A stretch of 55,299 nucleotides of DNA. Origin: an uncultured Gammaproteobacteria bacterium (lineage in GTDB: Bacteria; Patescibacteriota; Microgenomatia; CAZETR01; Amesbacteraceae). Below, in pieces: positions 2,625 through 55,299 of the stretch. A program made the position numbers and the translations under genes. Numbering within the stretch: the stretch's first letter is position 1; every line of letters begins with the position of its first letter. The stretch lies in contig CAZIVL010000001.1 in the NCBI GenBank assembly GCA_964543035.1, positions 433,736 to 489,034 of the forward strand, written 5' to 3'. The notes under the pieces were generated by a model, which had not been told where the DNA came from, did not search any database, and worked only from the letters and a program-made list of their open reading frames with translations.

Positions 2625-3825
2625 GATCATCTACGTTGGCAAAGCCAAGAATTTGCGTGATCGGGTAAAAAGCTATTTTCAGCCTCCCACGAAGCTAGGT
2701 CCAAAGACCGCTCAGCTGGTCGAAAATATCACCTCTCTCGAATTTATTGAAGTCGGCTCCGAAGTTGAGGCACTGCTTTTGGAGTCGAGCCTCATAAAGA
2801 AATTCAAGCCTTTTTTCAACATCGCCGCCAAAGATGACAAGTCGCCATACTACATTCACATCACGCGAGAACAGTATCCAAAGCCAACAATCAACCATAC
2901 TAGCCATTTAGCCATCGCTGGTCCATTTTTAAACAGATTGGTGCCAGCACGTATTCTCAAGCTTTTTCGCAGGATCGCCCCTTACTGTGTGGCACCCAGA
3001 CCAGTAAGAAAACCTTGTTTTTATTCTCATCTCAATCTCTGCAACCCCTGTCCGGGCACAAGCCATATAACCATCCAACCATATAGCAATAACATCAGAA
3101 GACTCAAATATTTGTTAGGAGGAAACTTTTCCAGAGTCAGGTCCGATTTGACCAAGAAAATGCAGGGTGCCTCCAAAGTCCAAGATTACGAGCAAGCAGG
3201 TTTACTACGCGACCAGCTGCTCGCCCTCGAACAACTTACCTCTGCTCACATCTTGCCCGAAGAATATATTTCCAACCCCAATCTCATTCAAGACTCCAGA
3301 GCAGAATCACTAAACTCGCTTACCCTTATCCTCACACCATATCTCACCACTCACCACTCACCACTCAGCCTAAATAGAATTGAACTCTACGACAATGCCC
3401 ATCTCGCAGGAACTAGTCCCACTTCAGCCATGGTAGTGGCCATAGATGGGGAGATCACTCCTAGAAACTACCGGCATTTTACGATCCGTACCAGCAAATC
3501 AAATAGCGACGTCGACATAATGAATGAAGTTTTGACCAGAAGACTTAAGCGCACTGACTGGCCACATCCAGATCTAATAGTATTAGACGGCGGTTTACCG
3601 CAACTATCGTCATACAAGATACTAGATACAAAATACAAAATACCTGTAATCGCTTTAGCAAAAAGAGACGAGATTATCTACACTCTGGACAAGCAGGAAA
3701 TCAAGCTCCCCAAGGACCATCCAGGCCTGAGACTTCTTATTCGTCTTCGCGACGAAGCCCACAGATTTAGTAGGCGGTTGCACCACAAACATCAACGTTC
3801 ATCTGTCATCCCGACCAAGCGGTAG
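2527..3825 (+). CDS. uvrC: excinuclease ABC subunit C, short form lacking the C-terminal (HhH)2 domain
   Basis: GIY-YIG motif GVYIYKNEKNKIIYVGKAKNLRDRV, UVR domain DYEQAGLLRDQLLALEQL, and an RNase H-like endonuclease region IELYDNAHLAG. It is only 432 aa. The 98-nt overlap with the preceding ORF suggests a later start such as GTG 2569. Confidence 0.85.
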   Translation: MSSLSGSSHPLWSTVVTLPTVPGVYIYKNEKNKIIYVGKAKNLRDRVKSYFQPPTKLGPKTAQLVENITSLEFIEVGSEVEALLLESSLIKKFKPFFNIAAKDDKSPYYIHITREQYPKPTINHTSHLAIAGPFLNRLVPARILKLFRRIAPYCVAPRPVRKPCFYSHLNLCNPCPGTSHITIQPYSNNIRRLKYLLGGNFSRVRSDLTKKMQGASKVQDYEQAGLLRDQLLALEQLTSAHILPEEYISNPNLIQDSRAESLNSLTLILTPYLTTHHSPLSLNRIELYDNAHLAGTSPTSAMVVAIDGEITPRNYRHFTIRTSKSNSDVDIMNEVLTRRLKRTDWPHPDLIVLDGGLPQLSSYKILDTKYKIPVIALAKRDEIIYTLDKQEIKLPKDHPGLRLLIRLRDEAHRFSRRLHHKHQRSSVIPTKR

Positions 3826-3862
3826 CGCGTGGAGGGATCCCTCGACTACGCTCGGGATGACA
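3804..3862. repeat. Palindromic repeat, same family (copy 2, both arms); likely also acts as the uvrC terminator hairpin
   Basis: tgtcatcccgaccaagcggtagcgcgtggagggatccctcgactacgctcgggatgaca, with ends tgtcatcccga/tcgggatgaca complementary. It supplies the last codons (SSVIPTKR) and the stop of uvrC. Confidence 0.75.
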
Positions 3863-7046: not shown

Positions 7047-7337
7047 ATGCCCCTAACACAAAAAATAATTGAAGACGTAATCAGAAAAGTAATCGTGTCA
7101 GAACTAACAGGAGTAAATGCAAAACTCCACACTATTAGTTCTGATGTATCTGTGGTCAAGGAAGATCTGAAAAAACTAAGTAAAAAAGTAAGCAATCTTT
7201 CTGACACTGTTACGAGTTTTTCAGCAGATGTGCAAAAATTTGATCAAGAACAGACAATACTCTCAAGCCAAATTCCAAATCGCACAGATCGCATAGAAAA
7301 ACTCGAAAAAATAGTTTTTGGCTCCATCCAAGCCTAG
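7047..7337 (+). CDS. small coiled-coil protein (96 aa)
   Basis: VKEDLKKLSKKVSNLSDTVTSFSADVQKFDQEQ...RTDRIEKLEKIVFG. It resembles 6822-7037 and 14687-14974 in style. Confidence 0.5.
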   Translation: MPLTQKIIEDVIRKVIVSELTGVNAKLHTISSDVSVVKEDLKKLSKKVSNLSDTVTSFSADVQKFDQEQTILSSQIPNRTDRIEKLEKIVFGSIQA

Positions 7338-7684
7338 TTTTTTCCAACTTTGGCCACGGCCATTTTCTCCATTTTTTCAAGATTGTTACCAATAATTTGA
7401 TATCCAGGTCCTTTAATTTTTTCGAGCTCATCTCGATAGGCTCTTGCTTTAACAAAAAATTCTTCTACTTTTCCCGTATCGACCAAGGGTTTCACCTCAT
7501 CAGGTTTCATCCAGGAGTTTAGCTCTCCAATAGCCCTTCTGGCCTGATCCGAAGATTCAATAATATTTGCGGACTGATCGACAAAATGCTCAAAGTATCT
7601 TGCCCATGAGGCAACACACTCGGCTGGAGTTCGTGCGGATGCCGCTTCGATTAGCAATTTGGTGCTGGTAGTTGCTTCTTCCAT
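7334..7684 (-). CDS. hypothetical protein (116 aa)
   Basis: Clean ORF with no recognisable motif. Its ATG lies 41 nt downstream (minus sense) of the structured element A core. Confidence 0.5.
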   Translation of the reverse strand: MEEATTSTKLLIEAASARTPAECVASWARYFEHFVDQSANIIESSDQARRAIGELNSWMKPDEVKPLVDTGKVEEFFVKARAYRDELEKIKGPGYQIIGNNLEKMEKMAVAKVGKN

Positions 7685-7699
7685 GGACCAATTTTATCT

Positions 7700-8066
7700 T
7701 AAATAACATTAATTTTTGGTGTGTGGGGTCGGAGTTTATATTTTTTGAGTGTGGTAGGTTTCTTGCTTATCGCAAGTCCTTTACTGATTACAACATTTGT
7801 AACCAGATCCACAGCTCTCATTGTCCAATCTGGGGTAATCCCAAATTAGCAATGCAAAATATAAGAGTCCGACCCCCAAAATCTTTCTCGAGCATGCTCG
7901 TTATCCAAAGCGCAATTGCTTTGAAAAAAGAGTGTTCACTCGATCGAAATTTCGACGAGATCGTGAAAATTACTTACAGGGGTGTCCATGAAACAAGACA
8001 AGCCAATTGGCCCATCCATTCATGCTTTGCTCCGCTTCTGGAACAAACTTTTGACACCCCAATTAC
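7700..8066 (-). ncRNA. Candidate structured RNA element, copy A (unknown family), directly 3' of the 289-aa gene
   Basis: Core closed by GGGGTCGGA (7725-7733)/TCCGACCCC (7868-7876). Internal hairpins are CTTGC/GCAAG (7762-7776), TTACA/TGTAA (7788-7802) and TGGG-GTAAT-CCCA (7831-7843). A distal stem GGGGTGTC (7979-7986)/GACACCCC (8053-8060) ends 6 nt from the stop codon. The architecture is shared with copy B with compensatory changes. Strand assignment is tentative. Confidence 0.6.
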
Positions 8067-8936
8067 TTATCCGAAAAACACGATAAGCACAACTACAATC
8101 ACAACGGCCGCCACGATCGCCAAACCCAGCAAGAAGTTTTCAACTTCCTCTTGAATCTGCTGGATCAGGCGGATGAGGCTATAGTTCGAGCCGGCGGGGT
8201 GAGTCTCAAGCACGGGTGTGTGCCTTGAGTGTTGATCGGAATCGTCCCGGGGCGTGCTGGGCTTGGGCTTCGGCGCCGGCGGAGTGGAAATCGGGGCACG
8301 CGGCTCCATCTTCTTCAAAACTTCGGGCTTCGTCTCCTCGATGGTCACATGCGTGACTGAAACATACACGGTATTCGTGATGTTCATCGAATTGTCGTAC
8401 ACGATCTGGCCGGTGTTGGTCCAATTCCCGTTGCTGTAGTTAAAACCAGCAGAATTCGGACCTGACACGACGTTCGAAACGATGTTGCTATTGCTGACGT
8501 TACCCACGGGGGTAGTCAGTACGGGAGTCGCATTGTTCAGCGGCTCTTCAATGAAAAAAGCTTTCAGAGAAACGTTGAACCAATCGCAATTGGTGCCACT
8601 TACTTTGAATTGCGACCACCCGTTGTAGGGTTGACCATCGGCCAGCGCGAGGCTGTCGACACCCCAAACTTCGGGAATGCCAAAAACAAAGATGCCGCCG
8701 CGATCCGTCACCCCATATTGGATATCGCCATTGGACAAATGAAGTTCAACCAGTGTGTTGTACACGGGCTGAGCATTCTCGTCCTGAACAAGGACCTGCA
8801 CAAAGTACAATGGGCAATCCTTGCCTTCGGGGTGAACCACGGGCTGGCCACAGTCCGCATAGGCCGTAGGAACGAAAGTTCCAACGACGATAACCAGTAA
8901 CAGACCAAACAGGGCGAAGAAGATTTTCTTAGCCAT
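8067..8936 (-). CDS. secreted type I membrane protein with a carboxypeptidase-regulatory-like (CarboxypepD_reg) domain and a C-terminal TM anchor
   Basis: Signal peptide MAKKIFFALFGLLLVIVVGTFVPTAYA, then YFVQVLVQDENAQPVYNTLVELHLSNGDIQYGVTDRGGIFVFG, a Pro-rich PPAPKPKPSTP stretch, and C-terminal LGLAIVAAVVIVVVLIVFFG. RBS AAGGAGG precedes the ATG. It is visibly GC-richer than its neighbours. Confidence 0.75.
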   Translation of the reverse strand: MAKKIFFALFGLLLVIVVGTFVPTAYADCGQPVVHPEGKDCPLYFVQVLVQDENAQPVYNTLVELHLSNGDIQYGVTDRGGIFVFGIPEVWGVDSLALADGQPYNGWSQFKVSGTNCDWFNVSLKAFFIEEPLNNATPVLTTPVGNVSNSNIVSNVVSGPNSAGFNYSNGNWTNTGQIVYDNSMNITNTVYVSVTHVTIEETKPEVLKKMEPRAPISTPPAPKPKPSTPRDDSDQHSRHTPVLETHPAGSNYSLIRLIQQIQEEVENFLLGLAIVAAVVIVVVLIVFFG

Positions 8937-9194
8937 TTCTACTGGACCTCCTTAAAGGCCAGGTGTTTACACTCAGATGCAAGCATCTAAGGTAAACCAA
9001 AAAAGAAAATAGGGTTGATTTCACAGGCGTATTGAACGCAGCGGAGACACAAGATAAGGCTCGGGCTAGCACTCCCTTGCACTATCACTAGTGTCACCAA
9101 AAGGTGACAATAATTTGTGTCCCCATTGCGTCCAACAGACCAATGAAAACCCTTTAGTAATTCTCGAATCTCGATTTTTAATGTACTAGACTTC

Positions 9195-9266
9195 TGCATT
9201 TTCGGTCTACCGAAGCACGCTTTGTGCGTAGGAGACCTCATCAGCCCCGCTCAGCGGAGTAATGCA
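9195..9266 (-). ncRNA. Hammerhead ribozyme, type III topology (candidate)
   Basis: The reverse complement reads UGCAUU-A-CUCCGC-UGA-GCGGGG-CUGAUGA-GGUCU..(24 nt)..AGACC-GAA-AAUGCA. All invariant core nucleotides are present in order, and stems I (6 bp), II (5 bp plus extension) and III (6 bp) are present. The NUH site is UUA. Confidence 0.8.
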
Positions 9267-9394
9267 TATGGACCAAATTTTTAAGGGTCTTAAATTACTT
9301 ACGACCTTACGGTCGAAGTATTTTTGCTGTCGGACTTCGTCCGAACTATGACGCTGCATATCTTGATAGATATTTCGCGTCGCAATAAATAATT

Positions 9395-9815
9395 GTTATT
9401 TTCGTGTGTGGGGTAGGTGCTTGTGTCTTGTTTAGTGTGTGTTAATTTCTGCTCGTAGCAGAGTCTTCAACGATTCAAATTGCTCTGAATCGTTTTACAC
9501 GCTTGTTGTCCGTCATCTGGGTTAATCCCAAACGAAAGCCAACTTATACAAGATGCAAATGCACCTACCCTCAAGTTTTGTTTCTCCAGCAATGTCGCTG
9601 AATTAGACGCAACGTCTAACGAGCAAAAAAGCTAGGTATCCAAAACCCGAGAGGTTTCAATCTTCTGCAATCCACAATTAGGATTGACTTGCGGTCAAAG
9701 ACAAAAGTCATTGGCACAGAAGAGAAAGAGTTAGTTATCCGCCAGCCGGTTCTATGTTCAACCACTCGGTTGATTCACGGGGTTATCCCATTACATAGAA
9801 CCAGCTGATCGGTCT
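9395..9815 (-). ncRNA. Candidate structured RNA element, copy B (same family as 7700-8066), directly 3' of the 637-aa gene
   Basis: Core closed by GGGTAGGTGC (9411-9420)/GCACCTACCC (9561-9570). Hairpins are TCTGCT/AGCAGA (9448-9462), AACGATTC/GAATCGTT (9469-9494) and TGGG-TTAAT-CCCA (9518-9530). The distal 15-bp stem 9743-9757/9793-9807 starts 12 nt from the stop codon. Its single mismatch is C.A on plus, which is G.U on minus. Confidence 0.6.
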
Positions 9816-9819
9816 AGTA

Positions 9820-11733
9820 CTAATTCAGAATGGAGTTCACCGACTCAAGTGAGTACGGCGCGTGGACAAGGTCCCACCAGTCTGGTTGAAGAACTCGTTC
9901 CCCGGGTTGTGTGACATTGACTTGCGTCAAGTGTCCAGCTCCATCGCGATACCATAATTGGTTCGCAATAACAAAAGCTGCACGGGTACTACCATCCAAA
10001 TCTACGGCGACATCATTCGCAATGCGATCCACCAACTTCGGCGAATTGCTCACATTGGAGAACGACATCAATCCTTGATTCGACTTGGAAGTTTGGACAT
10101 CCCCAAAAGCATCAAACGACAAGTTCGTCGTTTTTTGATTGGAGCATCCAAATCCGTACTGACTACCATGAATGTTAACCACGCACAAAACGTCGACAGG
10201 GTTGCGAAAAGCAATCCAATTCCCATCTGGGCTTGTGTCTGGCCGAACACCTTTGATTTTCAGGTCACGAACGAACGTGTTCCATTGATCAGTGACATAA
10301 AGTTCGCCATCAATCACATAAGGAATCGTCCAATCACGCGACCATTCTGGCTGGATCTCATTCACATTATCTGTGAAAGTAATCTGTCGAAGGCCAGTAC
10401 CATCAACGCCAACAACCCATAGGTCCGCATTCTGTGCTTCAGGCATTTGAGCCGAAAACACAATCTTGCAGCCATCGGGGCTAATTGACGGGTTCAACAT
10501 CCATGCGCCATCAAGACGGGCGTCCCAAGTGATCAATTCAATAGTTGAACTAATAGGATTTACCAATCGGTAAATCTCAGATGTGTTCTCTTTGTCGTCT
10601 GCGACAACAAAGATGACATGCTCGACTGACACACAAAAACCCGGCTCAGGGATAGTCACCACGGGGGTAGCTTCCTGAGTAGGAGTATCTGTGGGCGTCG
10701 GGCTGGCCGTGGGCGTCGCAGTCGGAGTATTACTGGGCGTAGGCGTGGAACTCGGTGTCTCACTCGGAGTTGGCGTAGGGGAAGAAATTTCGATAAATCC
10801 CTTGCAATCCGGTGAAGAATTACCATCCACAAATGCCAAGTAGGTCCGCGAACCAGGTGTCAGGTCGTAATCGACACCATAATAGGTATTGTTAGTACCC
10901 ATTCTGCCACTAGAGACCAATTCCCATGTATCGAGTCGAAAAACTTCAACCCATTCACCATTACCCCACACGGTAAGAAAAATTACATTATCACCATGGG
11001 AGTACGAAACCTCCAGCAAATCACATTGCGAAGGGGGTTGTACGGTTGGCGTCGGCTGAGTTCCAGTCGGCGTCTGGGTGTTAGTAGGCGTATTCGTCGG
11101 GGTGGATGTGAAAGTGTTCGTCGGAGTACTCGTGTGAGTCTCCGTGGGGGTCGCCGTGAAAGTTGGCGTGTTAGTGTTCGTAGCTGTCGGGGGAATATTG
11201 GTATTTGTTTCAGTTGGAGTGCTGGTCCATGTGGCTGTCTGAGTCACGTTGCATGAGCGGCCGATAAAGGTCGTCCAATGGTGAACCAGATAGTCGAACA
11301 CGGGCACCCCGTTGATCCAAACCCAACCTCCGCGATGAACGTCAAACTGAACTTTGATACAACCTTCGATATTCAAATCGAGAGACAACTCAATGTCGCC
11401 TCCAGGTTGAACCCACTTCTGACCCGTCCCGGCCAAATGAATCTGACCGTGAAAGACGGTAGCGTCAAATGCGTCGAGTTCGACATCACAGACACTCTGA
11501 CCCTTATTATGGATCACAACAGAAGAAGAACCTTCGCCGCCACCGGAAGCATATTCCAGATTCCAGTCTTCGCAGGGCTTAGGCGTGCTCGTCATCTCGG
11601 GCGTCGCGGAAATCGCGGCCGTCGGAGTGGCTTCGGAATCAGCTTTCACTGTCCGTGTCGGATAAGAACCAATGGCGGATGCCAAAAGGCTTAAAACCAA
11701 AACCCAAAACGTAGGCTTACGGAACTTGTTCAT
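9820..11733 (-). CDS. secreted multidomain protein: signal peptide, two Cys-containing domains joined by PT-rich linkers, and a C-terminal TolB-like (PD40) beta-propeller
   Basis: MNKFRKPTFWVLVLSLLASAIG signal peptide. Long TPT/PTxT linkers. PD40-type repeats NPSISPDGCKIVFSA and RPDTSPDGNWIAFRN. High GC with C/G-rich third positions compared with flanking genes. Confidence 0.8.
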   Translation of the reverse strand: MNKFRKPTFWVLVLSLLASAIGSYPTRTVKADSEATPTAAISATPEMTSTPKPCEDWNLEYASGGGEGSSSVVIHNKGQSVCDVELDAFDATVFHGQIHLAGTGQKWVQPGGDIELSLDLNIEGCIKVQFDVHRGGWVWINGVPVFDYLVHHWTTFIGRSCNVTQTATWTSTPTETNTNIPPTATNTNTPTFTATPTETHTSTPTNTFTSTPTNTPTNTQTPTGTQPTPTVQPPSQCDLLEVSYSHGDNVIFLTVWGNGEWVEVFRLDTWELVSSGRMGTNNTYYGVDYDLTPGSRTYLAFVDGNSSPDCKGFIEISSPTPTPSETPSSTPTPSNTPTATPTASPTPTDTPTQEATPVVTIPEPGFCVSVEHVIFVVADDKENTSEIYRLVNPISSTIELITWDARLDGAWMLNPSISPDGCKIVFSAQMPEAQNADLWVVGVDGTGLRQITFTDNVNEIQPEWSRDWTIPYVIDGELYVTDQWNTFVRDLKIKGVRPDTSPDGNWIAFRNPVDVLCVVNIHGSQYGFGCSNQKTTNLSFDAFGDVQTSKSNQGLMSFSNVSNSPKLVDRIANDVAVDLDGSTRAAFVIANQLWYRDGAGHLTQVNVTQPGERVLQPDWWDLVHAPYSLESVNSILN

Positions 11734-11873
11734 TTTGCAATCAATCCTTTCAGGGTGATTACGTGCTGATGTACGCCTTGCTTGATTCGTCTGGGTTGAG
11801 AACGATTAACCCTCCTGGGTCTTTCTTTCTTAACCTTGCGGGCTTCAATAGACAAAGTAAATTTGTCAGCCAT
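11730..11873 (-). CDS. small basic protein (47 aa), translationally coupled to the 637-aa gene; not in the ORF track
   Basis: My translation is MADKFTLSIEARKVKKERPRRVNRSQPRRIKQGVHQHVITLKGLIAK. A strong RBS is present (AAGGAGGttcttATG). Its stop overlaps the next start as ATGA (11730-11733). Confidence 0.5.
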   Translation of the reverse strand: MADKFTLSIEARKVKKERPRRVNRSQPRRIKQGVHQHVITLKGLIAK

Positions 11874-12418
11874 AAGAACCTCCTTGGCTCTTATTTTTCA
11901 AAAAAGTACACGATGGTGAACGAACAGGTGATAGACTTTTCCCTAAAGTCTCTTCAGCGTATTACATGTCTAGACATTTTTTTGTCCATTACATGAATAA
12001 GTCTGGTTGCGACATACGTCACTATAAATCCTTCAGCTTGAGGTGCTGACAAAATGTGGATTTATGCAGGGTTTACGAACGGGGAAATAATAGGGGGTAA
12101 TAGAGGAAGATGCGAGGTGTGAAACGCAGTGGAAACCCAAATAACATTAGTATGATCAGTACCTGTCGGTTCAACAAAAATTGACTTTAACCAACAACTA
12201 ATCCCTTACCAAATCACTAGATTCCCAATGCGTCTCACAAGATGCACTTCCTTTAAACTAACTCTAAAACCTCTCTTTTTAACGTGCTAGCGTTATTAAG
12301 TAGTTACAGGATTAGTCTGAAAGCTATTTCCAGGCTTCCTAACTACGACTATAGGATACCATTAATCCCATAGTTTGTCAAGGGCAAATACATATCAGAT
12401 ACTCATTCTTCCCTCTCC

Positions 12419-14686
12419 TTGAGAAGGAGCGGGATTGAGGGTGAGGTATTGGCAAGCCTTGGATGCTATGATTTATATATGGAACCAGTAGTTCTCACTC
12501 TTCGTGTCCCCAAGACTTCGGAAAACACTCCCGAGCAGACGGCCCAGCTCCTGGCCTCACTGTCGCGCGCTACTTCAAAAGCAGGTCTTCTGGGTGGCAA
12601 AAATTTGCACCTTAGTCTGGAGGTCACAGTTCTAAATGGTCTCATTACTTTTATTATCGTCACCCCCAAATCACTAGAGTCTTTTGTCCGCTCTCAAATG
12701 CTCGCCACTTATCCCGACGTCGTCATAGAAATTATCGAAGATTATCTGAAAGACTGGTCAACTGAGAAACTGACCAACTGGTCAACTACGGTTGTCCGTC
12801 AACAGTACGCCCAATTCTTTCCACTAAGAGATTACGCCGACTACAAAGAGGTCGACCCTATGCTTCCTGTTTTGGGAGTACTATCAAAAGCCGCCGAAGG
12901 GGACAAAGTCTTACTGCAGTTTGTCTTGACCCCTGCTCCCTCATCTGTGCAAAAAAATGCTTATAGATATCTGCATCCTCAAACTGTCGAAAAAGCTCCC
13001 ACTCCAGAAGGCAAGAAACTGATCGATGACAAGCTATCTCAGCCCTTAGTCGGAGTCTCTATTCATCTGGCTACCTCAAATCCATTTCTGATTCCGGATA
13101 TTGCCGGCTCCATGTCCGTACTCAACAGACCAGATGGCAACAGCCTCATTTCCCGCAAACCTATGCCTTGGGAAAAGCGTGCACTTTGGCAATGTATTAT
13201 TAATCGCAAACCATTTAGCAATCTAACCATTCAGCCATCAGTATTAAATGTCATGGAGCTATCATCTCTTTGGCACTTACCAGGGATCTACACCAAGCTA
13301 CCCAATGTGGCTTGGTCAGCTCTCGCCGCCTCAGTCACCGAACCCCCTGAAAATTTACCCATATATTCTAACGATGTCATCCCGAGCAACGTCGAGGGAT
13401 CCCTTTCAACTCCCCAAGAGATTTCTCCGCGCGCTTCGCTTGGTCGAAATGACATTAATAATGACATTAACTTTTTTGCCAAAACCCAATTTAGAAACCA
13501 AGACGTCATCTTTGGCATCAAGCTCGAAGACCGTCTCAGACACACATATATCCTGGGCAAGTCCGGAACTGGTAAATCGACATTGCTCGAAAACATGGCG
13601 GTCGACGATTTTAAAAAGGGCAGGGGAGTCGCTTTCATCGATCCTCATGGAGACGCCTGTGACAATCTTTTGAATTACATTCCCAAAAATCGCATCAACG
13701 ACACCATCTACTTCAACCCCGCCGACCGCGAGCACCCCGTCAGTCTAAATATTTTAGAAGTCGACAATCCCGATCAAGCCGAGCTGGTGGCCTCTGGTAT
13801 AGTCTCCATCTTCTACAAGCTGTATGGCAGGTCTTGGGGTCCCAGGCTCGAGTATATCCTGCGAAATACCCTCCTCACACTTACTCAGATCCCCGGCAGC
13901 ACCTTGCCCGACGTCATCAAAATGCTGACGCAAAAAGATTTTCGCCAGAAGATCTACAAGCAGATGAAAAACGAGCAGTTACTAAGCTTCTGGCAAAACG
14001 AGTTTGACGTCTTAGAAGAAAAGACCCGAGCCGAGCAGATCAGCTCCATTCTCAACAAAGTCGGCCAGTTTGTAAACTCGCCTCTCATTCACGATCTCAT
14101 CTCTCACCCCAAGTCGACTATCAATCTTGAAAAAGTCCTAGACGAAGGCAAGATCCTGATTGCCAATCTGTCTCAAGGAAAATTGGGTGAGGACAATGCG
14201 ACACTTCTGGGAGCCATGCTCATTACCAAATTGCAGCTATCTGCCATGAAGCGGGTGGACATGCCCAAAGAAGACCGCAAAGAGTTTTTCCTATATGTGG
14301 ACGAGTTTCAAAACTTTGCCACCAATTCCTTTACCAAGATCCTCTCCGAGGCTCGCAAATTTAGGCTCGGCCTAGTACTCGCCAATCAATATATTTCCCA
14401 GATTCCCGAAGAGATCCAAAAAGCCATCTTTGGCAATGCCGGCACTGTCATCTCATTTGTCGTGGGTGCCGAGGACGCCCGGGTTATGGAAGCCGAATTT
14501 GGCAAGATCTTTACCAAAGAAGCTCTGGTTTCCCTCACCAAGCATCAGATAGCTCTCAAAATGACGATTGATAACTCTCTTTCCCAACCCTTCTCGGCCT
14601 ACACTCTTCCACCATTCAAATCCACAAATATGAACCGCGACAAAGTCATCGAATCCTCCAGACAAAGATACGCTCTAAAAAAATAG
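12419..14686 (+). CDS. P-loop ATPase of the TraD/VirD4 (type IV coupling protein)/HerA-like superfamily with a ~360-aa uncharacterised N-terminal region
   Basis: Walker A ILGKSGTGKSTLLEN followed by FIDPHGD. Walker B FFLYVDEFQNFAT. C-terminal GNAGTVISFVVGAEDA resembles the TraD/VirD4 motif. The TTG at 12419 lies inside hairpin 12411-12433, so the likely true start is ATG 12479 (MEPVVLTL). Confidence 0.75.
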   Translation: MRRSGIEGEVLASLGCYDLYMEPVVLTLRVPKTSENTPEQTAQLLASLSRATSKAGLLGGKNLHLSLEVTVLNGLITFIIVTPKSLESFVRSQMLATYPDVVIEIIEDYLKDWSTEKLTNWSTTVVRQQYAQFFPLRDYADYKEVDPMLPVLGVLSKAAEGDKVLLQFVLTPAPSSVQKNAYRYLHPQTVEKAPTPEGKKLIDDKLSQPLVGVSIHLATSNPFLIPDIAGSMSVLNRPDGNSLISRKPMPWEKRALWQCIINRKPFSNLTIQPSVLNVMELSSLWHLPGIYTKLPNVAWSALAASVTEPPENLPIYSNDVIPSNVEGSLSTPQEISPRASLGRNDINNDINFFAKTQFRNQDVIFGIKLEDRLRHTYILGKSGTGKSTLLENMAVDDFKKGRGVAFIDPHGDACDNLLNYIPKNRINDTIYFNPADREHPVSLNILEVDNPDQAELVASGIVSIFYKLYGRSWGPRLEYILRNTLLTLTQIPGSTLPDVIKMLTQKDFRQKIYKQMKNEQLLSFWQNEFDVLEEKTRAEQISSILNKVGQFVNSPLIHDLISHPKSTINLEKVLDEGKILIANLSQGKLGEDNATLLGAMLITKLQLSAMKRVDMPKEDRKEFFLYVDEFQNFATNSFTKILSEARKFRLGLVLANQYISQIPEEIQKAIFGNAGTVISFVVGAEDARVMEAEFGKIFTKEALVSLTKHQIALKMTIDNSLSQPFSAYTLPPFKSTNMNRDKVIESSRQRYALKK

Positions 14687-15882: not shown

Positions 15883-16797
15883 ATGCTCGTAGACGAAATC
15901 GATATTGTTTTGACGGCTGGTCACGGCGGTCCAGGCAAGCTAGCTCCCGTAAAAACACCCACTTTTAGACCAGTTGGTGGCGACGGCGGCCGTGGGGGAG
16001 ATATCTATGCGACAGTTACTACAGACCTCATGGTGCTCAATCGACTTGCCGGTGTCCCCGAGATCAAAGCCGAGGATGGAGAAAAGGGCGGCATGAACGG
16101 CTCGTCCGGAAAAAATGGCTCAGATATCACCATCCAAATCCCCGTGGGGACTTCTATCGTGGATACTAAGACTGGAAAAATAATCGAAGCAGGTACACCC
16201 AATACCACGCTTCTTCTATGCAAAGGCGGCATCGGTGGCCGGGGTGGCAACTATCGAGCTCAGCCGGGGAGAGCCGGAGTCCAGATTCATGCCAAATTGA
16301 TTCTCAAGCTTATTGCCGACTACGGCTTTGTGGGACTACCAAATGCCGGCAAAAGCAGTCTCCTAAACGAGTTGACCAATGCCAACGCTCCCGTAGGAGC
16401 ATATCCCTTCACCACTCTCGAGCCAAATCTAGGAGTAATCGGCGGCAAAATCATTGCCGATATTCCAGGTCTTATCGAAGGAGCATCCGAAGGGAGAGGA
16501 CTGGGTATCAAGTTCCTAAAGCACATCGAAAAAGTTTCTACTCTCTATCACTGCATAGCCGCAGACAGTGAAAATATTTCAGCTGATTATGAGACTATTA
16601 CTCGAGAGTTGACAGAGTTTGGGTCCGGTCTTGAGACCAAGCCCAGAATCATAATTCTTACCAAGACTGATTTGGTCACTCAACACCAAATTGAATCAAG
16701 CGTAAATGAACTTCAAAAGTTTGGCCACGAAGTCCTCACCTGTTCTATATATGATCCCGAAAGCATCGATGCCCTAAAACTTCATCTCAGCTGTTAA
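15883..16797 (+). CDS. obg: GTPase Obg (short, no C-terminal domain)
   Basis: Obg fold with Gly-rich GGDGGRGGDIY and KGGIGGRGGN. G1 is GLPNAGKSSLL, G2 is FTTLEPNLG, G3 is DIPGLIEGA. Confidence 0.9.
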   Translation: MLVDEIDIVLTAGHGGPGKLAPVKTPTFRPVGGDGGRGGDIYATVTTDLMVLNRLAGVPEIKAEDGEKGGMNGSSGKNGSDITIQIPVGTSIVDTKTGKIIEAGTPNTTLLLCKGGIGGRGGNYRAQPGRAGVQIHAKLILKLIADYGFVGLPNAGKSSLLNELTNANAPVGAYPFTTLEPNLGVIGGKIIADIPGLIEGASEGRGLGIKFLKHIEKVSTLYHCIAADSENISADYETITRELTEFGSGLETKPRIIILTKTDLVTQHQIESSVNELQKFGHEVLTCSIYDPESIDALKLHLSC

Positions 16798-18232: not shown

Positions 18233-19612
18233 ATGTCAAAAACAGAGGTGTCTAGTACAGAGTATATAGCTCAAGTAAACAGAGTCGTAAAACAAGTTGT
18301 GGAGTCTCCTGACTACCTAGATCCATCGACGGGTTACGTTTCCCAAGCAGCCTGGAATAGTTTGGTCCAAGGTGGAATTTTAGCCGCTGCACTCCATGAT
18401 CGGGATCCCAAAAACTATCGAAGAGAGAAAATGGCAGTTATACGAGACACTTCCAGCACAGATCCCCAACTTGGTCTTATGTACGGCATCATGACAGCCC
18501 TCGTCATAGACAATATTTACAAATTTGCCCCAGATGGTTTAAGAAACGAGTATTTTGACAAGATAAGAGATGGTCGGTTGTGCGGACTCGCCTTTACAGA
18601 AAGAAAGATATCTGGCAGCTCCATACAAATGAATTCCCGCTTCACCGAGAATGGTTATCTAACTTTTTCAAAAAGATTTCAAGGCATCTCCGGTCACGAT
18701 CTTTTAGTCTTTGCCCAATCGACAGATAATCCGTACTTACTCGGTCTGTTTTTAGTTGAAAAACAATATATCACCACCGAATTTATCCAAACAGAAGGAC
18801 TCGGGGGCATTCCTTATGCTTTCAACTCAGGTCACGTACCAATGGATATCGTGCATCAAATTGCTTTACTCCACACCCGAAAAGACTTAGGGGTAATTCA
18901 ACAAATTTTCACAGAAAGCAGGTTGGGATTTCCTGGCATGTCTTTGGGTCAATTAGAACTCTTGGAGAGAATCGCAAAGCAGTATTCAGAAAACAGACTG
19001 ATCGGTGCCTCACTCCAAAAAGATATGGCAATTCCTAAAAGTGAACTGGAATCAATCATGGCCAGGCGAATGGTAGTACAAGCAATATATGAGCACAGTA
19101 TCGACTATTTAAATTTACATCCTGACACACTTAGGCTTGCTCCCGAAGGCAGTTTGATCAAAGCGCTCTCAACCGAATACGCGTTACTTGCCGCCCTCAC
19201 TGCAGCAAAGCTTGGCGGGGGAGACTCATATACTGCTGGTTCAAAATTGAGCCTAGTAAACGATATATGGCCGTTTACTATTTTTGAAGGCAACAATGAC
19301 ATGCTTTATAGCCAAGCAGGTCGATCACTTGCCCGAAGTTTATTGTATGACCAAGAATTGCCAGGTGGACTATTTGACAGGTCAAGAGCTGCCCAAAATC
19401 TTTTTCCAGGGTCCAAAGCGGTCATAGACAGATTGGTCGCAATTAACAAAGACGTGGGTTTAGAAAATATCTGGGGCCAAATAGCAGCCAGGTGTTTAGC
19501 TCTAGGTTGTTTAGACAAAGACCGACTAGACACTCACGACTACACCCTAGCCACCGAGCTTCTCAACCTAGAAATCCAACAAATCGGGCTAAAATACAAG
19601 ATCGGTATATAA
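18233..19612 (+). CDS. acyl-CoA dehydrogenase-fold protein (divergent)
   Basis: CGLAFTERKISGSS resembles ACAD signature 1. C-terminal AAKLGGGDSYTAGSKLSLVNDIWPFTIFEGNNDMLYSQAGRSL resembles the ACAD C-terminal helix bundle (..IYEGTNEI..). Confidence 0.5.
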   Translation: MSKTEVSSTEYIAQVNRVVKQVVESPDYLDPSTGYVSQAAWNSLVQGGILAAALHDRDPKNYRREKMAVIRDTSSTDPQLGLMYGIMTALVIDNIYKFAPDGLRNEYFDKIRDGRLCGLAFTERKISGSSIQMNSRFTENGYLTFSKRFQGISGHDLLVFAQSTDNPYLLGLFLVEKQYITTEFIQTEGLGGIPYAFNSGHVPMDIVHQIALLHTRKDLGVIQQIFTESRLGFPGMSLGQLELLERIAKQYSENRLIGASLQKDMAIPKSELESIMARRMVVQAIYEHSIDYLNLHPDTLRLAPEGSLIKALSTEYALLAALTAAKLGGGDSYTAGSKLSLVNDIWPFTIFEGNNDMLYSQAGRSLARSLLYDQELPGGLFDRSRAAQNLFPGSKAVIDRLVAINKDVGLENIWGQIAARCLALGCLDKDRLDTHDYTLATELLNLEIQQIGLKYKIGI

Positions 19613-20182: not shown

Positions 20183-20394
20183 CGTAGCTACCAAACTTAC
20201 TTTTTATGAAATTTAAACAATTCAATCGGTTGACCTTTGTTCAAAACATCTCCCCAAAGAGTGAAAACAAGCAAAAATGGAGCCGCAACTCCCGAAATCA
20301 AAAATAACTTCATATCACCACTTCTTTGCCAAGGCAGTGACTCCAAGACAGATTCTATTAAACTTCTCGTCAGTGGAAACACTTCGTTTGACAT

Positions 20395-37670: not shown

Positions 37671-37875
37671 ATGACAGTTCGACCCGAACATGTACTTTAG
37701 CACATTGCTGAATACGAATTTGATTTTTACGAACGCTTAGTAAACGCTCCTACATTTATTGACCCCGATGAACTTGAATCAGAAACCATAATCGAGTACG
37801 GGTTAGAAAATTACCTTTATATAATTAGAGAGTATTACTTGTGATCGACAAATACCGAAACCCTATTCATTAAAC

Positions 37876-37905
37876 AAAAGAAAAACCCCAATCTTGCGAC
37901 CGGGG
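37876..37905 (-). terminator. rho-independent terminator of dinB
   Basis: The minus strand reads CCCCGGUC-GCAA-GAUUGGGG (8 bp including two G.U, GNRA loop) followed by UUUUUCUUUUG. On the plus strand the same stem would need two A.C mismatches. Confidence 0.7.
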
Positions 37906-37973
37906 TTCTTCACAGTCTTGCGACTGACTCTCTTGCGAGAGCTTGTGTATAGTACCATCCACATCAAACCATG

Positions 37974-39185
37974 TCAACTAGCAAATTGTTGATCACTTCC
38001 AAATCTATAATATTTATCTCCCAGATATCCAGTTACTTCTGGGCGTAGCAGCTCTCCTCCCAAAAGTGACGCGGGATACAGAGTAAACAAACCATATTTT
38101 TTATTGACCACATCTGTAGCCTTCAGCATTTCTTCCCTCCTACCAAAGACTGACAGCTGACAACTAAAGACCAAGTTAGTAATCCACACTCCCGCTTTTC
38201 GGACACCCAAAACTGGTTTCTTCAAATATTCTTTGGAGAGCAAGTCATAAATAATCAGGGGATCATCTGTAGGAGTCACAACTGTCTTTCTCGCCCAAAA
38301 TCCTTCTTCACCAGAGAGTGATAGACAAAAAGTCCTCCCCACCATTTTCATTTCTCGCAGCTTACCACACGCTTCTTCCAAAAGATTTCTCACCAGATTT
38401 AGGATTTCGGATTTAGAATTTAGAGCTTTGTAAGTCGTGTATGACCGACTTACGCTTTTGGCCGGATCCAGCTCAGAAGTCAGGCTCAAATCTTCATTGA
38501 GCCTCAAATAGACCAGGTCTTCTACTTCTGGCAGGAGTCCAGACACCGCTCTGGCCTGACCCAGGGTGTACAAGCCCTTATTATGCAGATATTTGGTTCT
38601 GGCAAACCCAATCCCACACACTTCTTCGACTGCCAAATGTTCTGTGGCAGACAGGTAGTTCTCAGGCGTCAGCCAAGTTAGTCCATCTGGTTTTTGCATT
38701 TCCGACCCCAATTTGGCCAATAGTCTCGTATGCGATATTCCCACCGAGCACTTGAGCCAATCTCCCAGCTCTTCCTTGATTCGTCTTTTGATATCCAAAG
38801 CGATTTCCAAAGCACCTCCGGCATAAAGCCCTAATGTATCCGTCACATCAATAAACGCTTCGTCTATAGAAAAAACTTCGACAAAAGGGGAGTAATCAGA
38901 AATTATTTTTATAAGTCCTGTCGTCACCGCAAAATATTTATCCATGTCCGATGGCACCAGGATTATCTGTGGACACAGTTTCTGCGCATCCCATACACCC
39001 ATCCCCGTTTTCACTCCATATTTTTTGGCCTCGATAGACGCCGCAATCACACATCCTCGCCCAGGCGCCTTCAGTATTCCCACCGGTTTTCCTCGCAGTC
39101 TGGGATTTGCCTGCTGCTCCACCGTAGCAAAGTAAGAATTCATATCCACATGCAAAATAGTCTTTCTCATGTTTGGATCGTCCAT
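37974..39185 (-). CDS. dinB: DNA polymerase IV (Y-family)
   Basis: ILHVDMNSYFATVEQ, FSIDEAFIDVT, and GISHTRLLAKLGSEMQKPDG are the canonical Y-family palm/finger motifs. Confidence 0.9.
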   Translation of the reverse strand: MDDPNMRKTILHVDMNSYFATVEQQANPRLRGKPVGILKAPGRGCVIAASIEAKKYGVKTGMGVWDAQKLCPQIILVPSDMDKYFAVTTGLIKIISDYSPFVEVFSIDEAFIDVTDTLGLYAGGALEIALDIKRRIKEELGDWLKCSVGISHTRLLAKLGSEMQKPDGLTWLTPENYLSATEHLAVEEVCGIGFARTKYLHNKGLYTLGQARAVSGLLPEVEDLVYLRLNEDLSLTSELDPAKSVSRSYTTYKALNSKSEILNLVRNLLEEACGKLREMKMVGRTFCLSLSGEEGFWARKTVVTPTDDPLIIYDLLSKEYLKKPVLGVRKAGVWITNLVFSCQLSVFGRREEMLKATDVVNKKYGLFTLYPASLLGGELLRPEVTGYLGDKYYRFGSDQQFAS

Positions 39186-41178: not shown

Positions 41179-41796
41179 ATGTCACAGCCTATAGGAAATA
41201 AAGTGAAGAGCCCTCCTACTAACTTCTTCGAGGCTCTAAAAGATCTAGGGGAAAGCACGCTTTCTGAAGCCAAAGTCCAGATAAAAAAAGTCGTCACCGA
41301 CGATATTCCCCAGGCCATCGGCATGGCTCCGGCAGGCACCCTCAAACAAGGCGAATCTCTGTCTGTAGCCGATCTCAAAAAAGCCGAAAACAAAGGTTAC
41401 ACTGAGGCCAAATCTGAGTTCAACGTTCAATTGCGCCAGATGCAAGAGGACGAGCGCAGACGTCTTCTTGCTATCGAAAATCAGACCAGACAGCAAATCA
41501 CGTCTATTCAGGCAGAAATCAAGCTTCTGGCCCAATCCACCAAAGAGCTCGGAAAAGAGTTCGAGATTGCAGCCAGTCAGGCCGTGGTCAATCCTGGCAT
41601 CTATCACAAGAACTTTTTTGCCCACCTCAGCTCTCTTATCAAGACCTTGCGTCAGCAAGTTCAGGATTCCAAGCATTGGCTAGCCACGACCAACGCCAGA
41701 GCTGGCAAACGTGGTGCTTACTGGTCAGGTGTAAAAAAGAGCGGTACATCCTTCATGCTCTCTTCTGAGCGATATATGGTAACATCAACTGGATAA
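41179..41796 (+). CDS. hypothetical protein (205 aa)
   Basis: Clean ORF with a coiled-coil middle. No family recognised. Confidence 0.5.
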   Translation: MSQPIGNKVKSPPTNFFEALKDLGESTLSEAKVQIKKVVTDDIPQAIGMAPAGTLKQGESLSVADLKKAENKGYTEAKSEFNVQLRQMQEDERRRLLAIENQTRQQITSIQAEIKLLAQSTKELGKEFEIAASQAVVNPGIYHKNFFAHLSSLIKTLRQQVQDSKHWLATTNARAGKRGAYWSGVKKSGTSFMLSSERYMVTSTG

Positions 41797-41890
41797 ACAT
41801 ATGTCAAAGACTTTAAATTTTGCTTTTTTCTTTACCCCGCATGCGGGGCGGTTTGGGTGATTTAAAAAAAATTACCCCAGACGGCAATAG

Positions 41891-41912
41891 CCCCGCACCA
41901 AGCGGGGTTTTT
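41891..41912 (+). terminator. rho-independent terminator
   Basis: CCCCGC-ACCAA-GCGGGG followed by TTTTTCTTTT. A related palindrome CCCCGCATGCGGGG lies at 41836-41849. Confidence 0.7.
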
Positions 41913-42066
41913 CTTTTGGAAAAACTATGAAAGATATACCTCAACCAAAACCAGAGTCCCAGCTCGAAAAAACCATCTCAGTATGGCTCGCTTATTTGGT
42001 TCAAAAAAATCAGGCAGAGGCTGATCGAACCCTGAGAGTTATCAATCGCAAGGCTTTAAAAGTTCC

Positions 42067-46435: not shown

Positions 46436-47000
46436 CCCGCATTTTAGGATCAACCATCAAATTCAGGCCAAGGAGGTCCGCCTTCTTCGAGCCGATGGCT
46501 CCCAAATAGGCGTCGTCACTCGCGATGAAGCACTTTCCCAAGCCAAAACCGAAAAAGTAGACGCAGTCGAGATAGCCCCCATGGCCGTCCCGCCGGTCGT
46601 CAAACTTATCGACTACAAGAAGCTCTTGTACCAGATGGCCAAAAAGGAGCAGGCTGCCAAAGCCTCCGCCAAAAAGGTCGATCTTAAAGAAGTCCGTTTG
46701 ACGCCGTTTATGGCCGAAAACGATTTTGCGACCAGAATTGGTCGGGGCAGAGAGTTTCTCACCGAAGGCAACAAGCTAAGAATCGCCATCAAATTTGTGG
46801 GCCGCCAGCTTGGCAAAAAGAACTTCGGAGACGTAGTCATGAATAGAGCTTTCGCGGCTTTGGAAGATATCAGTACTGTCGATCAGCCAGCCAAATGGTT
46901 TGGCAAGCAGTACATAGCAACCCTGACACCAGTTAAAAAATCAGCAAAAGTTGAAAAACAAAATGAGCAACAAACAGAAAACTCGCAAATCAGTAGCTAA
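46428..47000 (+). CDS. infC: translation initiation factor IF-3
   Basis: INHQIQAKEVRLLRADGSQIGVV and the C-terminal domain KEVRLTPFMAENDFATRIGRGREFL. The start codon is uncertain (the track uses GTG 46428). Confidence 0.9.
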   Translation: MSNPHFRINHQIQAKEVRLLRADGSQIGVVTRDEALSQAKTEKVDAVEIAPMAVPPVVKLIDYKKLLYQMAKKEQAAKASAKKVDLKEVRLTPFMAENDFATRIGRGREFLTEGNKLRIAIKFVGRQLGKKNFGDVVMNRAFAALEDISTVDQPAKWFGKQYIATLTPVKKSAKVEKQNEQQTENSQISS

Positions 47001-55226: not shown

Positions 55227-55255
55227 TGTCATCCTGAGCTTGCCGAAGGATCCAC
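55227..55255. repeat. Repeat family GTCATCCTGAGC..GAAGGATCC, copy 5 (single arm), just after the recG stop
   Basis: tgtcatcctgagcttgccgaaggatccac. Confidence 0.7.
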
Positions 55256-55299
55256 TTTTTTGAATTTATGACTCCACTACCCAAGAGACGATGGTCAAC

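Follow-up and report, generated by a model that had tools for sequence, protein, structure and literature searches.

Hairpins that stand between the genes of an operon and stabilise the message or serve as RNase III processing sites include the REP elements in malEFG, the hairpins of the puf operon and sites in the early RNA of phage T7. Two long stems resemble these elements, each placed shortly after a stop codon on the minus strand of a stretch of 55,299 nucleotides (nt) that forms the window of this study (positions 433,736 to 489,034 of contig CAZIVL010000001.1, from an uncultured groundwater bacterium of the Amesbacteraceae, Patescibacteriota). They likewise would lie in a multi-gene transcript, their structure is kept while their sequence is free, and the effect to be expected is segmental stability of the message. 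Unlike the known hairpins, they are unique, branched (65-95 nt) and always followed by a conserved RNA of ~290-450 nt.

Hammerhead ribozymes that cut polycistronic bacterial RNAs between genes have been documented by Perreault et al. (2011; PMC3088659), who accepted candidates with three helices, canonical core-adjacent pairs and an open stem III. Downstream of one of the two stems lies a motif that resembles type III hammerheads (RF00008) in its complete core, three helices, NUH triplet and open stem III. Like the intergenic representatives of this type, it is located between co-directional genes and would cut the transcript into gene-length pieces. It differs from them in a stem II of 34-42 nt, a 3-nt stem I loop, the triplet UUA instead of GUC and a score below the level reportable in Rfam, and it is attached to the 3' end of a large conserved RNA, being neither isolated nor part of a tandem array. 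The large bacterial RNAs OLE, GOLLD, ROOL, HEARO and raiA are comparable to the RNAs that follow the stems in their length of hundreds of nucleotides, many conserved helices, covariation, invariant unpaired nucleotides and narrow range. In contrast to them, the RNAs described here match no model, are strictly intercistronic, occur as two diverged paralogues side by side, begin with a variable 5' hairpin domain, carry an attached ribozyme in one copy and are found in three genomes. The ingredients are of known kinds, but their combination (a variable boundary hairpin, a paralogous conserved RNA present twice around one gene, and an atypical hammerhead) is undescribed in the literature and databases searched; a literature search for hammerheads and structured RNAs in these phyla returned nothing relevant.

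Each of the two stems forms the sequence-variable first domain of a structured intercistronic RNA; the two RNAs are paralogues, here called copy A and copy B. In the sense of the genes, each RNA follows a stop codon after 6-18 nt and consists of the variable hairpin, a multi-hairpin linker, a multi-helix core, the sequence CCCCACACAC and an AU-rich tail. An earlier reading of the DNA letters alone, here called the original prediction, had proposed the order stop, stem domain, linker and core, and this order recurs in all six instances from three genomes. The preferred reading, to which a probability of roughly 0.45 is given, is that both RNAs are co-transcribed intercistronic modules that would segment or stabilise the operon transcript, or release a stable RNA from it.

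The closing stem of copy A has the plus-strand arms GGGGTGTC (7979-7986) and GACACCCC (8053-8060), which form eight perfect pairs. In RNA sense, where coordinates run from high to low on the minus strand, GGGGUGUC (8060-8053) pairs with GACACCCC (7986-7979), beginning 6 nt after the stop of a gene for a protein of 289 amino acids (aa). The second of the two arms that it encloses is a G.U-rich GGAUGGGCC-AAUU-GGCUUGUCU hairpin nested within a CAUGAA/UUCAUG stem. In copy B, the arms 9743-9757 (CAGCCGGTTCTATGT) and 9793-9807 (ACATAGAACCAGCTG) make 15 pairs with a single mismatch, 9747:9803, which reads C.A on the plus and G.U on the minus strand; this stem begins 12 nt past the stop of a 637-aa gene. 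The coordinates, both stop distances and the mismatch are as originally predicted, and the nested hairpins (CAUGAA/UUCAUG, GCCAAUUGGC, UCAACC/GGUUGA and GGGAUAACCCC) are all present in the minimum-free-energy folds. The GGGAUAACCCC motif, which the original prediction had likened to a core hairpin, does not hold up as a supporting detail; it is confined to the copy B hairpin of the window and is not conserved. The copy B hairpin folds at -42.9 kcal/mol (z = -7.9, minus strand), and its 15-base-pair (bp) stem is the top high-identity spaced inverted repeat of the window. For the copy A hairpin, the sense fold reaches -41.0 kcal/mol with five G.U pairs, against -26.9 kcal/mol with none for the antisense fold. 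The stop-proximal segments of A and B have z-scores of -5.0 and -7.9 on the minus strand versus -3.5 and -5.2 on the plus strand. The position of the stems, the z-scores and the rank among inverted repeats imply that the observation is not due to chance.

Two relatives, each compared with the window copy, were available. The first, L010 (also represented as L005 and L011), is a groundwater Patescibacteria assembly recovered by scanning representative genomes with the core pattern. The second, L030, was found via the neighbouring solute-binding protein (88% identical), whose named relatives are Amesbacteria/Microgenomates. The original prediction had suggested comparing homologous loci, and the stems are kept in all six instances of the three genomes, with closing stems of 8 to ~19 bp and z-scores from -3.1 to -7.9; the gene-sense strand is the more stable one in five of the six. 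These six hairpins represent five unrelated sequences. Only those of L010-A and L030-A are alike, and the two stem positions at which they differ change so as to create G.U and U.G pairs. The copy B stem of the relatives has the same place and equal length, but an unrelated sequence. Pairs that are kept while the sequence is free, and that are workable only as RNA of the gene strand, confirm the central point of the original prediction.

The core carries the strongest comparative signal. Its covariance model scores 120-191 bits on the gene strand versus 16-25 bits on the opposite strand. Six sequences (A and B of three genomes) aligned to this model show four helices; the proportion of paired cells is 98.9%, and both sides have changed in 11 of the 30 pairs. 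None of 500 shuffles reaches any of these measures, and slid alignments show 36-51% paired cells and 0-4 covarying pairs. RNAalifold independently recovers the same helices. In copy A the core comprises P1 (7877-7868/7734-7725), hairpins at 7845-7828 (UUUGGGAUUACCCCAGAU), 7806-7784 and 7776-7762 (CUUGCGAUAAGCAAG), and the CCCCACACAC tail (7729-7719) at its end. In copy B, P1 is formed by GGGUAGGUGC (9570-9561) and GCACCUACCC (9420-9411), and the core further contains the UUUGGGAUUAACCCAGAU hairpin (9532-9515), two variable hairpins and the CCCCACACAC end. The closing helix is G/C-rich and covaries between the paralogues (GGGGUCGG/CCGACCCC versus GGGUAGGUG/CACCUACCC). The UUUGGGAUUNNCCCAGAU hairpin contains one invariant U.G and one mostly G.U pair, which fixes the gene strand as the RNA strand.

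The linkers are built from short hairpins and show some compensatory changes. Linker A contains CGA-UCUC-GUCG, GAGUG-AA-CACUC (GAGAG..CUCUC in the relatives), UCAAAGC-AAUUGC-GCUUUGG and CGAGC-AU-GCUCG; linker B contains CUUCUG/CAGAAG (CUCC/GGAG in L030), AAUCC..GGAUU, AAACC-UCUC-GGUUU and UUAGACG-UUG-CGUCUAA.

The strand bias extends to the complete spacers. The fold of 7685-8069 has a z-score of -8.3 on the minus strand versus -5.1 on the plus strand, and that of 9242-9822 has -11.2 versus -6.8. When minus and plus folds and G.U counts of the six full intergenic regions were compared, as the original prediction had proposed, all six favoured the gene strand: the sense folds are 13-55 kcal/mol more stable and contain more G.U pairs. 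These results support the view that the elements act as RNA of the minus (gene) strand, and the hammerhead motif of copy B is found on that strand too. In a 200-nt sliding scan, which is crude because of its few mononucleotide shuffles, both intergenic regions rank near the top of the window for structure, and 9001-9200 (minus) has the lowest z-score of all (-8.05). The GUAA (GNRA) hairpin at 9302-9315, to which the original prediction had also appealed, does not hold as support; it lies inside a 109-nt insertion that has no counterpart in L010 and L030.

This strand bias bears on the possibility that the hairpins and conserved blocks act at the DNA level, as cassette boundaries for the swapping of surface-protein genes. 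Such boundaries would explain why variable genes lie between conserved non-coding blocks, why each hairpin directly follows an open reading frame (ORF) and varies with the 3' end of that gene, and why the two cores form direct repeats flanking the ~300-aa gene, which is a mosaic in the window. Integron attC sites likewise consist of an imperfect hairpin of variable sequence and kept fold behind an ORF. However, the asymmetry of the strands, with G.U pairs that become A.C mismatches in the DNA of the other strand, and the compensatory changes that preserve RNA helices point to RNA. The attC pair RYYYAAC...GTTRRRY, which would mark the R''/R' core sites, is present in none of the six hairpins on either strand, and the ORFs scanned within ~10 kilobases (kb) contain no integrase, transposase or other recombinase domain, so that attC was rejected. 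Nor are the hairpins dispersed repeats: in a comparison over 150 kb of sequence, each gave no match beyond itself and its orthologue; dispersed REP or MITE elements were rejected for lack of near-identical copies. A recombination role is thus very unlikely, although ordinary homologous exchange via the conserved flanks could still occur as a side effect. As for the mosaic itself, a 121-nt stretch of the 289-aa gene (8197-8317, encoding a Pro-rich segment) has 84% nucleotide identity to L010, while the remaining protein has 32-48%, a pattern that suggests either recombination or a constrained segment.

The gene order on the minus strand is a promoter-like site with a leader, a 47-aa ORF, the 637-aa gene, the spacer with copy B, the 289-aa gene, the spacer with copy A, and a 116-aa gene. 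The arrangement of a variable secreted gene, copy B, a ~300-aa membrane protein gene, copy A and a variable gene is shared by all three genomes. The proteins diverge quickly: the ~300-aa proteins of L010 and L030 are 32-48% identical to that of the window, the counterparts of the 637-aa protein (553 aa and 440 aa) are barely alignable, and copy A is followed by the 116-aa gene in the window and by unrelated genes of 663 aa in L010 and 503 aa in L030. The linker and core of A, in contrast, retain 83% (L010) and 89% (L030) nucleotide identity, compared with 68-77% for housekeeping genes and 79-97% for transfer RNAs (tRNAs) in the same alignments. The non-coding modules are the most constrained non-tRNA sequence of the neighbourhood. 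The window is rich in short inverted repeats, with 44 pairs of 11 nt or more, and this would suit an origin of the stems as functionless chance palindromes in AT-rich spacers. This explanation has a negligible probability and is refuted by z-scores down to -11, hairpins in six of six instances, strong covariation of the core and a nucleotide conservation above that of housekeeping genes.

Table 1. Features of the locus; coordinates refer to the window, and all features lie on the minus strand.
Feature	Positions	Length	Basis and remarks
Promoter-like site TTGACA-17-TATCCT with TG	12353..12381		Promoter scan
Upstream gene, 637-aa secreted protein	9820..11733		ORF list; stop 9820-9822
Spacer B with copy B	8937-9819	883 nt	~560 nt up to the predicted ribozyme cut
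Variable hairpin, copy B	9743..9807		Encloses the UCAACC/GGUUGA and GGGAUAACCCC hairpins
Linker, copy B	9581..9742		Alignments and fold; 79% nucleotide identity to L010
Core, copy B	9397..9580		Covariance model 163.6 bits; covariation
Window-specific insertion	9288..9396	109 nt	Alignment gaps; three hairpins, including the GUAA-loop hairpin
Type III hammerhead motif	9195..9266		Descriptor search, fold, three genomes; previously unannotated
Structured leader domain	9036..9131		Alignment, promoter scan; closing helix ACGCAAUGGGGACACAA/UUGUGUCUCCGCUGCGU; upstream of the 289-aa gene
Central gene, 289-aa protein	8067..8936		ORF list; stop 8067-8069
Spacer A with copy A	7685-8066	382 nt	
Variable hairpin, copy A	7979..8060		Closing stem GGGGUGUC/GACACCCC encloses two hairpin arms
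Linker, copy A	7887..7978		Alignment and consensus fold
Core, copy A	7712..7886		Covariance model 190.2 bits (minus), 16.5 bits (plus); covariation
AU-rich tail, copy A (AAAAAUUAAUGUUAUUUA...)	7685..7711		Runs to the ATG at 7684 of the 116-aa gene

The hammerhead motif of copy B reads, in minus sense from 9266 to 9195, UGCAUUA and, beyond the predicted cut, CUCCGCUGAGCGGGG-CUGAUGA-G...C-GAAA-AUGCA. Stem III is formed by UGCAUU/AAUGCA, stem I by CUCCGC-UGA-GCGGGG, and stem II is a long hairpin closed by G-C. The core comprises CUGAUGA, G10.1-C11.1, GAA, A15.1-U16.1 and A at H17 (A9260). The pairs next to it are canonical (C-G, G-C and A-U), and stems I, II and III count 7, 5 and 6 bp. The triplet UUA obeys the NUH rule, and the predicted cut falls after A9260 and before C9259. 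The minimum-free-energy fold is a three-way junction. A descriptor search found one match in the window, where 0.01 are expected per shuffled window, and also matched the orthologous site in L030. L010 and L030 share the hammerhead core unchanged. The three genomes differ in stems I and II alone, stem II having an internal loop in L010. A canonical type III hammerhead takes a comparable position in L035, a more distant relative treated below. Judged by these features, the motif is probably an active ribozyme.

The predicted cut site lies 7 nt into the motif and matters only if there is RNA upstream of it, which implies that core B is co-transcribed with the hammerhead and the leader of the 289-aa gene. 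Furthermore, a promoter scan and alignments of copies A and B revealed no conserved promoter-like site between hairpin and core, whereas a strong one with a conserved leader stands ahead of the gene cluster. These points argue for co-transcription of the modules. In the preferred reading, they would be made within one long minus-strand operon transcript, which the hammerhead just downstream of core B would cut. The upstream product would be a 637-aa message ending in a folded 3' domain of ~560 nt, with a cyclic-phosphate end, that would block 3'-to-5' exonucleases, and the downstream product a 289-aa message with a 5'-OH and its own structured leader. The long, nearly perfect stop-codon hairpin could form a second boundary, either as a barrier or as a target of a double-strand-specific nuclease, and would let linker and core be released as a discrete stable RNA. 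Since the hairpin lies within the ribosome footprint of the stop, it could also couple its folding to translation of the upstream gene.

Several observations weigh against this reading. Copy A has no ribozyme, and its 3' boundary is undefined. In the hammerhead of the window, the stem I loop has 3 nt and a loop-loop contact is not obvious. RF00008 gave no match on 9170-9290 at E values up to 10 (gathering threshold 48.5 bits), for which the stem II of 34 nt and the triplet UUA are probably responsible. In the three hammerhead sequences, 94.7% of the helix cells are paired and two compensatory pairs occur in stem II, values that are not distinguishable from shuffles. The comparative evidence as a whole comes from three genomes and six sequences. 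Finally, loops and single strands (the AUUAC loop, CCCCACACAC and UUAUUUA) are very highly conserved, more so than an exonuclease block needs, which points to a specific partner. In a tentative alternative, less probable than the segmenting modules, linker and core would constitute a new class of large structured RNA peculiar to a lineage of ultra-small Patescibacteria, excised by the boundary hairpin and its own hammerhead from an operon for hypervariable surface proteins. Instead of being a passive stabiliser, this RNA would have a specific molecular task; it might bind a protein or ligand, or influence how the surface-protein genes are transcribed or translated.

A related possibility is a free-standing trans-acting non-coding RNA of a new large structured class, released from the operon or transcribed from a promoter of its own, in which linker and core bind a protein or RNA and the hairpin and ribozyme only define the ends. 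With ~290-480 nt and at least eight helices, the RNAs resemble other large bacterial RNAs. The A and B paralogues are only ~72-74% identical, a paralogy detected by the structure-aware model and MAFFT and missed by ordinary BLAST, and yet their single-stranded motifs and loops are invariant. Each genome has two copies, and the hammerhead would give a defined 3' end. On the other hand, no partner was found, and the neighbouring proteins gave no family match. All three genomes keep the RNAs in syntenic, strictly intercistronic places, and no copy exists elsewhere in the window or the compared related loci. A trans-acting role is rather improbable, but the high conservation of loops and single strands keeps it a serious alternative. 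The unpaired CCCCACACAC, which is followed by a UUAUUUA-type AU-rich tail in all six copies, found only chance-level partial matches when a base-pairing target was sought in the window. A side observation concerns the tail of copy A: its section at 7685-7700 (minus; AAAAUUGGUCCAUGG) resembles AAAAUUUGGUCCAUAUGCAUUA at 9267-9285 (minus), which precedes the copy B hammerhead, and has no counterpart in the A copies of L010 and L030. This likeness may be a trace of a rearrangement that replaced the downstream gene.

The stems might instead be terminators, each ending the upstream gene, with linker and core forming the separately transcribed 5' leader of the next gene, trimmed by the hammerhead in copy B. 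Rho-independent terminators are likewise stable and lie within 20 nt of a stop, and their stems, too, are long and contain G/C pairs. In each genome, the core stands upstream of two different genes, and core A ends 28-45 nt before the next start codon. A counterpart in L035, a more distant Amesbacteria-like genome, also fits: its stop-proximal hairpin is followed by UUUUUU like a classical terminator, and between it and the next gene lie a structured RNA and a hammerhead. No U-tract, however, follows any of the six closing stems (the tails in the window are UGUAAGUAAUUU and AUAACUAACUCU), and a terminator scan flagged none of them. They are also much larger than canonical Rho-independent terminators and branched, and this assignment was rejected for want of the U-tract. 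The missing promoter-like site between hairpin and core and the lack of an Rfam riboswitch match likewise speak against a leader. So do the exchanged genes after copy A, which would be unusual for a gene-specific riboswitch or leader whose RNA is 83-89% identical; a constant pairing of a riboswitch-like leader with one downstream gene was rejected on account of these unrelated genes. Terminator and leader together make a credible but improbable account. In L035, the hammerhead (20213-20266, minus) is a canonical type III motif with 40 bits and E = 5e-8 against RF00008, below the gathering score; ~300 nt separate it from an upstream gene for a Pro/Thr-rich secreted protein, and a PAP2 gene follows shortly after it. 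The intervening RNA of ~220 nt (z = -8.4) is unrelated to the core described here.

The original prediction had assigned the elements to the upstream genes as 3' extensions. This proposal is supported in part: strand and order stand, but ownership by the upstream gene is unproven, since the RNAs are intercistronic and flank the ~300-aa gene while the outer genes differ, and since copy B continues into the hammerhead and the structured leader of the next gene and copy A ends close to the next start codon. No Shine-Dalgarno sequence is visible in the copy A tail before the ATG of the 116-aa gene (7684). The description of the upstream genes as GC-rich holds to a modest degree only, their G+C contents being 52.5% and 49.8% compared with 44.8% for the window.

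Within the sequences searched, the RNA family is real and restricted to one narrow, Amesbacteria-like clade of Patescibacteria. The three genomes yield exactly two matches each to the covariance model, which has none in the distant Amesbacteria L032-L035, in chance loci from metagenomes or in the rest of the window. A scan of the genome collection with the core pattern gave one real relative among seven matches; the 18 matches of a metagenome scan were all chance hits in GC-rich coding DNA, a viral scan gave no core match, and BLAST against phages and plasmids found nothing similar. Rfam 15 (4227 models) reports only tRNAs above the gathering score in the window and nothing meaningful on 7300-9900 at E values up to 10, including OLE, GOLLD, ROOL, HEARO, raiA, riboswitches and other ribozymes. 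That the spacers might hold small conserved ORFs was considered and rejected, because stops occur in every frame and the longest ORFs are disrupted by indels; nor do the substitutions that separate the genomes follow a codon period (phase counts 20/23/24).

Patescibacteria have tiny genomes with little spare DNA, and nevertheless this locus spends ~1.3 kb on non-coding sequence that is better conserved than the neighbouring housekeeping genes, while the surrounding proteins evolve very fast. A new RNA family without a database model provides an uncultured lineage with a candidate means of controlling its surface proteins at the RNA level, and boundary hairpin, structured RNA and ribozyme together would offer a possible way of segmenting an operon by RNA alone. 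Because the atypical long stem II is missed by standard models, similar ribozymes may be under-counted in these phyla. The importance of the system is limited in that only three genomes are known to have it.

The insertion between core B and the ribozyme (table) occurs only in the genome of the window, which indicates that this junction tolerates insertions. L030 has nothing at this site, and L010 has a REP-like element there, of which 4-5 copies occur in the 150 kb compared. This dispersed palindromic element, TGTCATCCTGAACGCAGTGAAGGATCC, is found in the window at 1575-1609, 53615-53649 and 55227-55261 and also at 3804-3862; in L010 it occupies 2350-2378, 7760-7788, 16444-16474 and 18937-18965, one copy lying between core B and the hammerhead.

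Beyond the hammerhead, the structured leader of the 289-aa gene contains a hairpin that covaries among the genomes (UGUCACC-UUUU-GGUGACA, UGUCAUC-GAAA-GAUGACA and UGUCAUU-GAAAA-AUGACA), and it overlaps a promoter-like sequence, TTGTCA-18-GATAGT. At the other end of the gene cluster, the strong promoter-like site at 12353-12381 is the likely start of the transcript bearing both RNAs, and may drive the whole cluster. The stretch 12188-12402 (minus), which holds this site and the leader that follows it, has 81-91% nucleotide identity in L010 and L030. It precedes the 47-aa ORF (11730-11873), which runs into the beginning of the 637-aa gene. Possibly this leader is yet another conserved RNA belonging to the operon.

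The 637-aa protein has a signal peptide, Pro/Thr-rich linkers and one PD40 beta-propeller repeat (Pfam). The 289-aa protein has a signal peptide and a C-terminal membrane anchor and belongs to an orphan family, with a single homologue among 5.8 billion proteins; the 116-aa protein is an orphan in the protein search. Pfam and PADLOC revealed no informative domains in the flanking proteins, the matches being the PD40 repeat and coiled-coil noise. A gene for a VirD4/TrwB-like ATPase lies at 12419-14686, and the window further contains 15 tRNA genes over its 55 kb and housekeeping genes for UvrC, Obg, HSP20 and parts of an ABC transporter. This mixture of scattered tRNAs, housekeeping genes and the ATPase fits a small Patescibacteria chromosome and not a phage or plasmid. 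In the crude 200-nt scan, z-scores of -4.5 to -5.4 were also recorded for stretches without an Rfam report at 41401-42000 (+), 46601-46800 (+) and 37801-38000 (-).

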